Of a DNA stretch of 64,000 nucleotides, positions 35,001 through 38,000 are shown in pieces (the stretch's first letter is position 1; each line of letters opens with the position of its first letter). The stretch lies in NCBI RefSeq assembly GCF_054482525.1, contig NZ_CM137006.1; one strand, 5' to 3'. Made by a program: the position numbers.

Positions 35001-38000
35001 ATACCGATTACGTGAGTAATGAATCAGGGACGCTTTCGCGATTATTTAAACTACCTCAGCATGGGACCACCGTCCGCACAGAATTGATTGCGGGGATGAC
35101 CACTTTTTTAACCATGGTGTACATCGTTTTTGTGAATCCGCAAATCCTCGGCGCGGCACAAATGGACCCGAAAGTGGTGTTTGTTACCACCTGTTTGATT
35201 GCCGGTATCGGCAGTATTGCGATGGGGATATTTGCTAACTTACCCGTGGCGCTGGCTCCGGCAATGGGGCTGAACGCCTTCTTTGCGTTCGTGGTCGTGG
35301 GGGCGATGGGTATCTCCTGGCAGACCGGGATGGGCGCGATATTCTGGGGCGCAATTGGGCTATTTTTGCTCACGCTATTTCGTATCCGGTACTGGATGAT
35401 CTCCAACATTCCATTAAGTTTACGTATTGGTATCACCAGCGGAATCGGATTATTTATCGCCTTAATGGGATTAAAAAATACTGGCGTTATTGTCGCCAAT
35501 AAAGACACCCTGGTGATGATTGGCGATTTAAGTTCTCACGGCGTGTTGTTAGGTATTTTAGGGTTTTTTATTATAACCGTGTTGTCATCACGTCATTTTC
35601 ATGCCGCGGTGCTTGTTTCTATTGTGGTGACGTCTTGCTGTGGCTTATTTTTCGGTGATGTTCATTTTAGCGGCATCTATTCCATTCCGCCTGATATTAG
35701 CGGCGTCATTGGTGAAGTAGATTTGAGCGGCGCGTTAACACTTGAACTCGCCGGTATCATTTTCTCCTTTATGCTGATCAACCTATTTGATTCATCAGGA
35801 ACATTAATTGGTGTAACTGATAAAGCTGGCTTAATAGATAGTAACGGTAAATTCCCCAATATGAATAAGGCGCTGTATGTTGATAGCGTCAGTTCGGTGG
35901 CGGGTGCGTTTATCGGCACCTCGTCTGTTACCGCCTATATTGAAAGTACTTCTGGTGTGGTGGTCGCACGGGGCTGACGGCTGTCGTGGTCGGCGTTATG
36001 TTCCTGTTAGTTATGTTCTTCTCACCGCTGGTGGCGATGGTTCCTCCTTACGCAACCGCCGGAGCGTTAATCTTTGTTGGCGTGCTGATGACTTCGAGCC
36101 TGGCGCGCGTTAACTGGGATGATTTTACCGAATCGGTGCCCGCATTTATTACCACGGTGATGATGCCCTTTACTTTCTCGATCACCGAAGGGATTGCACT
36201 CGGCTTTATGTCGTACTGCATCATGAAAGTGTGCACCGGGCGCTGGCGCGATCTGAACCTGTGTGTGGTGGTGGTCGCAGCTCTGTTTGCACTGAAGATT
36301 ATTCTGGTGGATTAGTAACTGGCGAGGGTTTCCAGATATCATGAGTTCTGATTACGCAGGAGAACTCATGATCTGGATAATGCTCGCCACGCTGGCGGTA
36401 GTGTTTGTGGTTGGTTTTCGGGTGCTGACATCCGGGGCCAGAAAAGCGATTCGCCGTCTCAGCGATCGGCTGAATATCGATGTCGTACCCGTGGAGTCGA
36501 TGGTCGATCAAATGGGAAAGTCAGCCGGTGACGAATTTTTACGTTATTTGCATCGCCCGGATGAGTCGCACCTGCAAAATGCCGCGCAGGTATTGCTCAT
36601 CTGGCAAATTGTCATTGTCGATGGTAGCGAACAGAACCTGCTGCAATGGCATCGGATTTTACAAAAAGCCCGCCTTGCCGCTCCCATTACCGATGCTCAG
36701 GTCAGGCTGGCGCTGGGTTTTCTGCGCGAAACCGAACCTGAAATGCAGGATATTAATGCTTTTCAGATGCGCTATAACGCGTTCTTTCAGCCTGCCGAGG
36801 GCGTTCACTGGCTGCATTAAAACCGCTTCGTCTTATCAGCCTACAGACCGCGCCTGACCTGTAGGGTGGATAAGGCGTTCACGCCGCATCCGGTATCGGA
36901 ACTGACAGTAGGTGAACGCATTATCTACGTTCTATTTACAGCAGCACCTCCAGCCCGTGTTTTTGCACAATGCTGAGCAGTTTTAATGAAATGCCATTGG
37001 GGCGTTTAGCGCCACTTTCCCATTTTTGTACAGTTGAAACGCTGGTATTGAGATAGTGAGCGAAGACGGGCTGACTCACTTTTAATTTTTCCCGCAGTGC
37101 TTTTATCTCAACAGGTTGTAAGTCTTGCACGCTGGTCAGGCAGGCTTTGTCAAAAGTACGCATCGTTTCGGCAGAAATAGCATCGACGCTGGACAATCCA
37201 GCCGCTGCGCTGTGAATAGCCTCAAATGCAGGACTTTTAAATTTAGTTTTTGCAGTCATAGCAGATCTCTGTCAGTTCTTTAGTGTTAATCATTGCTGTT
37301 AGTTGGGCTTTCGTCAGGAAGCCATAATGCTTTGCAATTTCACGAAACCCAGCCAGTTCCTGACTATTGATGTTCGACATATCCTGTTTTGCATATAAAA
37401 ACGTGTAAAACCAATTACTTCCCCCTTTCGCCAGAATAATTGCACGCTCACGATTTTGGTGAAGGCGCTTTTTAAAAACGCCACCGCCAAGTGCATCAGC
37501 TTTACCTTGTTCCGTTTCTAAAATGGCCCGGCACAACTCTTCATCTGTTATTGCATGAGACCTGGCTTCACTTGCAAACCATTTGGTTTTAAACACGCGC
37601 ATATCGTTGAGATCCTGTTATTAAAGTATATCACCAAGTGCAATACTTTATCCCTTGTTCCCAACACAATCGCGAAAATACATATCACCTTGCCCTATGA
37701 TTTTTATTTCTTCGAGCAGCCTCGAACTTTTCCCACAACACCGTAAAAGTTGCAAAAACGTTAAATGCGTCACACATTTCAATGTTAAAGTGGTCGGCTT
37801 TTCCCCTGAAACATGCCACGGGTAACACCATGAGTGAATTTATTGCCGAAAACCGCGGCGCGGATGCCATCACCCGACCGAACTGGTCAGCCGTTTTCTC
37901 GGTGGCGTTTTGCGTCGCCTGTCTGATTATCGTTGAGTTTTTGCCCGTCAGTTTGTTGACGCCAATGGCCCAGGATTTAGGCATTTCGGAAGGGGTTGCC

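Follow-up and report, generated by a model that had tools for sequence, protein, structure and literature searches.

Between yicN and nepI, the stretch of 64,000 nucleotides analysed here (contig NZ_CM137006.1 of NCBI RefSeq assembly GCF_054482525.1; hereafter the window) carries two small overlapping genes on the minus strand. The question raised by this locus is whether the pair is a toxin-antitoxin module and, if so, of which type. A sequence-only reading of the window had likened it, from gene order and gene size, to HigB/HigA-type modules. The results presented below indicate that the locus is likely to be a type II toxin-antitoxin operon, chromosomally encoded and of HigB2/HigA2 type, composed of an mRNA-cleaving toxin and an autorepressing antitoxin.

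The gene pair, its families and its conservation

The listing of open reading frames (ORFs) and inspection of the sequence placed two minus-strand ORFs in the yicN-nepI interval, at 37243-37602 (119 amino acids, the toxin gene) and at 36936-37259 (107 amino acids, the antitoxin gene), which overlap by 17 nt (37243-37259). The locus was 99.9% identical to that of Escherichia coli PCN033, for which RefSeq annotates the same two genes, and the neighbours were identified as yicN (DUF1198) and nepI from the annotation of this near-identical locus. The number, lengths, overlap and position of the genes, as well as the basic character of the 119-residue protein, had been described correctly by the sequence-only reading: the toxin has an isoelectric point (pI) of 9.0 with 18 Lys and Arg versus 14 Asp and Glu residues, and the antitoxin is also basic (pI 9.6). 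The RefSeq call for the toxin gene starts at a GTG at 37596 and encodes 117 instead of 119 amino acids. Since the ATG of the antitoxin gene lies within the final codons of the toxin gene, the two are probably translationally coupled, and an overlapping or abutting arrangement was also present in related loci.

The 119-residue protein matched Pfam family PF06296 ('RelE') over the complete model (expectation value (E) 3.9e-40, score 137, residues 1-113, model positions 1-120 of 120), and this was the only Pfam family reported at E <= 10. PF06296 was formerly a domain of unknown function and is classed in a 2025 review as a HigB2-type, toxin-first family acting by ribosome-dependent mRNA degradation (PMC11980606). 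HigB2 of Vibrio cholerae (VcHigB2) itself belongs to PF06296, at its periphery (E 3.3e-8, model positions 8-96). On this family assignment, the toxin is a member of the HigB2/HigA2-specific family and not of the Proteus Rts1 HigB family (PF05015). No model of NCBIfam or PADLOC matched the toxin, and in PHROGs the only match was a weak one to a family of unknown function.

The similarity to HigB2 was detected by fold comparison and not by sequence search of the PDB. An AlphaFold2 model of the toxin, built from 36 homologues (predicted local distance difference test (pLDDT) 86.5, predicted template modelling score 0.80), together with a Foldseek search, showed the RelE/ParE (BECR) fold, in which N-terminal helices pack against an antiparallel beta-sheet. 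The nine best Foldseek matches in the PDB were all VcHigB2 chains (5JA8/5JAA; probability 0.98-1.0, template modelling score 0.45-0.62, ∼21% identity), and Cami1, YoeB, YafQ and RelE, all ribosome-dependent RNases, ranked after them. Using hhalign, residues K44, R46, R53, Y70 and K72 of the toxin were paired with K49, R51, R64, Y82 and K84 of VcHigB2, which are the active-site residues of that toxin (PMC5416850, PMC10098735). Because this alignment is weak (E 0.024, probability 2%), the mapping of the putative catalytic residues is of low confidence and is propped by the fold match. Among 35 diverse homologues K44, R46, R53 and K72 were invariant, and position 70 was either Tyr or Phe, with Phe in about half of them.

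The 107-residue protein could be divided into an N-terminal segment of ∼45 residues, presumed to be neutralising, and a C-terminal HigA2-like XRE helix-turn-helix (HTH) domain (residues 46-102). The HTH assignment made previously was confirmed by a match to Pfam HTH_3 (residues 52-96, E 1.2e-7), next to a match to the C-terminal part of MqsA_antitoxin. In a phmmer search of the PDB, residues 46-102 matched V. cholerae HigA-2 (5JAA/5J9I) with E 8e-10. MqsA-family, NadS and YbaQ models of NCBIfam were all matched below their cutoffs; the match to the YbaQ model PRK10072 covered the HTH region only (E 9e-7, 29 bits versus a cutoff of 110). Within the N-terminal segment, residues 6-24 were well conserved.

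Relatives of the locus were collected with a narrow alignment as query and one genome per species, which resulted in 430 relatives, of which 80 were kept. By tblastn, a homologue of the antitoxin was found directly downstream of the toxin homologue in all 80 loci. Their hosts comprised Enterobacterales and other Gamma-, Beta- and Alphaproteobacteria, as well as Gemmatimonadota metagenome-assembled genomes (MAGs). The partner proteins were mostly full-length (∼106-107 amino acids), and a truncated toxin or partner was seen in 5/80 loci. Within Escherichia, the ratio of nonsynonymous to synonymous substitution rates (dN/dS) was 0.13-0.17 for the toxin and 0.06-0.09 for the antitoxin, values which indicate that both are selected genes. 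That both ORFs arose by chance in intergenic sequence and have no function therefore has next to no probability: their small size is the only point in its favour, and it is refuted by the full-length Pfam match, by toxin homologues known from hundreds of taxa, by the complete pairing and by dN/dS ratios well below 1.

Three further observations were made among the relatives. In Verminephrobacter aporrectodeae the homologous pair adjoins genes for proteins with SIR2_2, NB-ARC and HATPase_c_3 domains, and these surroundings resemble a defence island. Contigs of ∼1 kb assigned to a 'Collinsella sp.' MAG carried one module 100% identical to that of E. coli and another of the Klebsiella type, which almost certainly derive from enterobacterial DNA contaminating an actinobacterial MAG. 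Contig NZ_JFHN01000045.1 of Erwinia mallotivora contained two copies of the module ∼13 kb apart, so that the module family is not always single-copy.

A putative operator and the proposed mechanism

A repeat search identified, 19 bp upstream of the toxin ATG, an imperfect palindrome (37622-37650; arms of 13 nt separated by 3 nt), which is a putative operator. Its core reads TTGCAC-TTG-GTGATA (37629-37643), and the palindrome had a single match within the window. The consensus of the family, TAGCAC-N3-GTGCTA, was found at the same place just upstream of the toxin gene in nearly all loci, and 55 loci contained the perfect palindrome TAGCACNNNGTGCTA, each of them a single time and invariably at this position. 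A putative extended -10 element (TGaTATACT, 37625-37633, minus strand), which overlaps the right half of the palindrome, and a putative Shine-Dalgarno sequence (AGGA, 37613-37616, minus strand) were recognized by inspection. In the relatives the same layout of a -35 element, 17 nt and a -10 element was observed, with the palindrome filling the spacer between the -35-like TTG and the -10 element and overlapping the latter. A scan of 36800-37850 for consensus promoters and terminators called nothing, and for this reason the promoter assignment is based on the reading of the extended -10 element and on comparative conservation.

The footprinted operator of V. cholerae HigA2 is also a single inverted repeat, which extends from after the -35 element across the -10 element (PMC11006873). 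The palindrome-over-promoter layout described here matches this architecture, while sequence and spacing differ. The palindrome is thus placed as a putative autoregulatory operator overlapping the promoter of the operon. HigA2 reads DNA bases with R68, E71, N72 and R77 (PMC11006873), which correspond to S75, Q78, K79 and A84 of the antitoxin; since these base-reading residues are replaced, the DNA specificity is expected to differ. The toxin-first, HigB/HigA-like organization claimed by the sequence-only reading is therefore supported by PF06296, by HigB2 as the closest fold and by the HigA2 homology of the partner, and further by the 80/80 pairing and the palindrome over the -10 element.

In the proposed mechanism, the operon would be transcribed from the extended -10 promoter overlapped by the palindromic operator. 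The toxin would be translated first and the antitoxin then, by the probable coupling. The antitoxin is predicted to dimerize via its C-terminal XRE HTH domain, to bind the palindrome with its core at 37629-37643 and to shut the operon down, while its N-terminal ∼45 residues would enclose the toxin and prevent it from reaching the ribosome. Upon depletion of the antitoxin, the RelE-fold toxin would enter the ribosomal A site and cut mRNA with K44, R46, R53, Y70 and K72, resulting in an arrest of translation and growth. The gene pair, its family and fold, the conserved residues, the palindrome, the purifying selection and the distribution were observed directly in the present analysis. Toxicity, ribosome-dependent mRNA cleavage, N-terminal neutralisation, autorepression and protease-triggered activation are inferred from VcHigB2/HigA2, from ToxP/AntitoxP of Coxiella burnetii and from the survey of the family in PMC11980606. 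Taken by this analogy, the toxin most likely acts as an endonuclease on mRNA in a ribosome-dependent manner, and the antitoxin most likely neutralises it and represses the operon. Candidate physiological roles are stress response, phage defence or mere persistence of the locus.

Distribution, relative rates and the alternatives

The module was found in 1716 of 5426 complete E. coli genomes (32%), throughout as a single chromosomal copy at the yicN-nepI site; carriers include O157:H7 EDL933 and strains of sequence types ST131 and ST69. The order nepI-toxin-antitoxin-yicN was kept in Citrobacter koseri and C. amalonaticus, and in Klebsiella pneumoniae, K. oxytoca, K. michiganensis, K. grimontii and K. 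indica. In Citrobacter and Klebsiella, dN of the module tracked dN of the flanking genes.

That E. coli K-12 has no genes at this site, as stated in the sequence-only reading, proved correct. By blastn and reading of the junctions, a segment of 840 bp (36896-37735), which comprises the whole module and its promoter, is replaced by 41 bp in K-12. A local alignment revealed that this filler (897-937 of the compared stretch) contains a 17/19-nt match to toxin codons 29-34 (37499-37517), with a score of 28 compared to a maximum of 24 in 200 shuffles. A relic of 19 bp of the toxin gene in the filler implies that K-12 lost the module by deletion. A recent insertion of the 840-bp segment with target duplication was considered and rejected, given that no direct repeats bound the segment and given the synteny in Citrobacter and Klebsiella and the relic in K-12. 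From the synteny and the relic together, the sequence comparison indicates that the module is ancestral at the nepI-yicN site and that its absence from the K-12 lineage results from a deletion; it was not inserted here.

Several points weigh against the reading as a HigB2/HigA2-type operon with an mRNA-cleaving toxin. In the open-access literature searched, no experiments on this module were found. Searches of the PDB with the toxin, both as a single sequence and as a 36-sequence profile, returned nothing meaningful, and the hhalign alignment to VcHigB2 is weak, as described above. The C-terminus of the toxin extends ∼25 residues beyond VcHigB2 and forms a helix (98-106) and a strand (110-115) in the AlphaFold2 model. 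In an AlphaFold2 model of toxin, linker and antitoxin fused in one chain, residues 10-24 of the antitoxin formed a helix with pLDDT > 90, a result that does not confirm docking. The operators of Escherichia carry two deviations (T[T/C]GCAC...GTGATA) from the consensus of the family, and the recognition-helix region of the antitoxin is unchanged between Escherichia and Citrobacter; repression of the operon may be weaker in Escherichia. A 'HigB-like' label is no guarantee of RNase activity, as Salmonella SehA, which belongs to another family, inhibits RNase III (PMC12817084). In addition, the toxin evolved faster than the antitoxin in every comparison. Finally, the toxin was frameshifted or truncated next to an intact antitoxin of the 107-residue type in E. 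coli CFSAN061771 and in Mixta, Lonsdalea and Winslowiella loci.

The points on the C-terminus and on SehA bear on a reading in which the pair is a true toxin-antitoxin pair with a toxin that is not a ribosome-dependent mRNase, but an enzyme inhibitor like SehA or a gyrase poison like ParE, perhaps with involvement of the C-terminal extension. The RelE/ParE fold does include toxins without RNase activity, namely ParE and SehA (PMC11980606, PMC12817084). The C-terminal helix and strand are conserved, carry an L-x-E-I-C motif and have no counterpart in VcHigB2; E112 is nearly invariant in a broad set of homologues and invariant in closer sets. The toxicity of SehA maps to an extra C-terminal helix (PMC12817084), and Y70 is replaced by Phe in about half of the homologues. 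However, SehA is from the different, K-12 HigB/HigA type of family, and the closest characterised members, VcHigB2 and, by its HigB2 homology, Coxiella ToxP, cleave mRNA or block translation (PMC11980606, PMC5416850, PMC10098735). Moreover, the basic active-site residues that are missing from ParE-type toxins are invariant here, and in the fold ranking HigB2 is followed by ribosome-dependent RNases throughout. A toxin of this other kind is considered very unlikely. A short beta2-beta3 loop and a C-terminal extension are typical of the core of PF06296.

The evolutionary points bear on a different reading, in which the module has been domesticated or attenuated: the HTH protein would be selected as a transcription factor, possibly acting on the divergent nepI promoter or on other targets, and the toxin would be weak, inactive or in the course of being lost. 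The antitoxin is indeed more conserved than the toxin, with 85% versus 70% identity to C. koseri and 79% versus 63% to K. pneumoniae. In E. coli CFSAN061771 (601-908 of the compared stretch) the antitoxin matches the annotated PCN033 protein exactly, although the toxin is broken. The site between nepI and yicN is constant across Escherichia, Citrobacter and Klebsiella, where dN of the module follows that of its neighbours. Further, ybaQ, of the same antitoxin family, is a core gene after loss of its toxin (bioRxiv 10.1101/2020.05.25.114553). As judged from these loci, the toxin decays before the antitoxin, and its faster evolution and its frameshifts would fit a weak or dispensable toxin. On the other side, the dN/dS ratio of the toxin shows purifying selection, K44, R46, R53 and K72 are invariant, and the window holds no second copy of the operator. 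In addition, 56 of the 60 E. coli records that were sampled had a toxin annotation free of frameshifts; the other four had a match shorter by 1 nt, and the one of these that was inspected was flagged as frameshifted. Domestication with a failing toxin is rated as unlikely.

In a related proposal, the module is a long-domesticated chromosomal fixture, inherited vertically since before the split of Escherichia, Citrobacter and Klebsiella and not a selfish cassette, in which the HTH protein or the C-terminal extension of the toxin has a host function. It may find its basis in the slower evolution of the antitoxin and in the conservation of operator and promoter across proteobacterial classes, but is likewise rated as rather improbable. 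If it were true, the module could, for example, regulate the neighbouring purine-efflux and adenine genes, or the toxin could have a target other than RNA cleavage.

Surrounding sequence and comparison with known systems

The sequence-only reading had described the pair as flanked by sequences resembling repetitive extragenic palindromic (REP) elements. This holds on the side downstream of the antitoxin gene and does not hold on the side proximal to the toxin gene, where no REP element was found in 37603-37830. The repeat search identified a REP element or bacterial interspersed mosaic element together with a partial inverted REP-like copy (36837-36929), located downstream of both yicN and the antitoxin gene. 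The former (∼36837-36895, with a match to the REP consensus at 36861-36894) is also present in K-12, and the partial inverted copy (36912-36928) lies on the antitoxin side. The region 36837-36929 is likely a hairpin or terminator serving the convergent genes. The only Rfam match obtained was to naRNA4, a REP-derived nucleoid-associated RNA, at 36864-36929 on the plus strand; it was below threshold (32.9 bits versus a gathering cutoff of 59.5) and extends over the resident REP element and the inverted partial copy, directly beyond the stop codon of the antitoxin gene.

Two further features of the window were noted. Compared to PCN033, the adenine permease gene adeQ has lost 7 bp (GGCGGTC, a single unit of a short direct repeat) at ∼35959, and this deletion splits the gene into ORFs at 34910-35977 and 35986-36315; adeQ is thus probably a pseudogene in this strain. 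On the plus strand, an ORF of 3705 amino acids with many near-identical repeats of ∼100 amino acids is located at 39216-50333, and its counterpart in PCN033 is annotated by RefSeq as the inverse autotransporter adhesin IatC.

The exact sequences of both proteins occur on hundreds of contigs in public databases, where the toxin entries bear the names "type II toxin-antitoxin system RelE/ParE family toxin" and "addiction module toxin RelE", and the RefSeq toxin-antitoxin naming was present in every E. coli record sampled. The module is an ordinary, already-annotated member of a known toxin-antitoxin family and as such adds little; no paper on this particular locus was found in the open-access literature searched. 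The module is a clean marker of presence or absence in E. coli, where it is single-copy, and an unusually stable syntenic toxin-antitoxin locus across Enterobacteriaceae, with a deletion scar in K-12. Its stable synteny and the scar make it a convenient natural system for the questions why chromosomal pairs persist and why the toxin decays first. The core subfamily of PF06296, which the module represents, lacks both a solved structure and a member with characterised biochemistry, and V. cholerae HigB2 is an outlier of PF06296.

Among the known systems, HigB/HigA of E. coli K-12 (ygjN/ygjM) and SehA/SehB of Salmonella resemble the module in being toxin-first, with a RelE-superfamily toxin and an HTH-XRE antitoxin. 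They differ in their toxin family, PF09907 (PMC11980606), and in an antitoxin of ∼140 amino acids with an N-terminal dimerisation domain. No PF09907 match was found in the toxin described here (Pfam, E <= 10), and the best PDB match of its antitoxin was HigA-2 and not K-12 HigA. The module falls outside this family. The target of SehA is RNase III and not mRNA (PMC12817084), unlike the activity proposed here. SehA/SehB was also considered as an orthologue and rejected: SehB has 142 amino acids and is 46% identical to K-12 HigA, and SehA is 40% identical to K-12 HigB.

ybaQ with the upstream higB-1 of E. coli B2/F strains shares the toxin-first order, the clade-variable presence and the loss of the toxin with retention of the antitoxin (bioRxiv 10.1101/2020.05.25.114553). 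The pair described by Rousset et al. was rejected as the same module, as it lies at a different chromosomal locus and its toxin is reported as PF05015 (HigB-like) (PMC7232551).

ToxP/AntitoxP of the Coxiella burnetii plasmid QpH1 (CBUA0028/CBUA0027) is described as homologous to HigB2/HigA2, retains all five active-site residues and has a toxin-first order (PMC10098735); it is likened to the present module from its published description. ToxP inhibits translation and is neutralised by AntitoxP, which binds its promoter (PMC10098735). Unlike the module in the window, this pair is plasmid-borne and serves plasmid maintenance.

The closest system is HigB2/HigA2 of V. cholerae (VCA0468/VCA0469; PDB 5JA8, 5JAA, 8A0X). 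Its toxin is a member of PF06296 with the closest solved fold, and the five active-site positions could be aligned. Both modules are toxin-first, both antitoxins combine an N-terminal segment outside the HTH with a homologous C-terminal XRE HTH domain, and both operators are single inverted repeats located between the -35 element and over the -10 element. The toxins share only ∼20% identity, which is missed by a plain sequence search, and where VcHigB2 has a Lys/Gly-rich beta2-beta3 loop of 11 residues, the toxin described here has a short loop and ∼25 extra C-terminal residues. The operators differ as well, being of the 6-N3-6 TAGCAC/GTGCTA type here compared to 7-N5-7 TGTACGC/GCGTACA in V. 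cholerae. Finally, the V. cholerae module is a superintegron cassette, whereas the module between yicN and nepI occupies a fixed site in the core genome.

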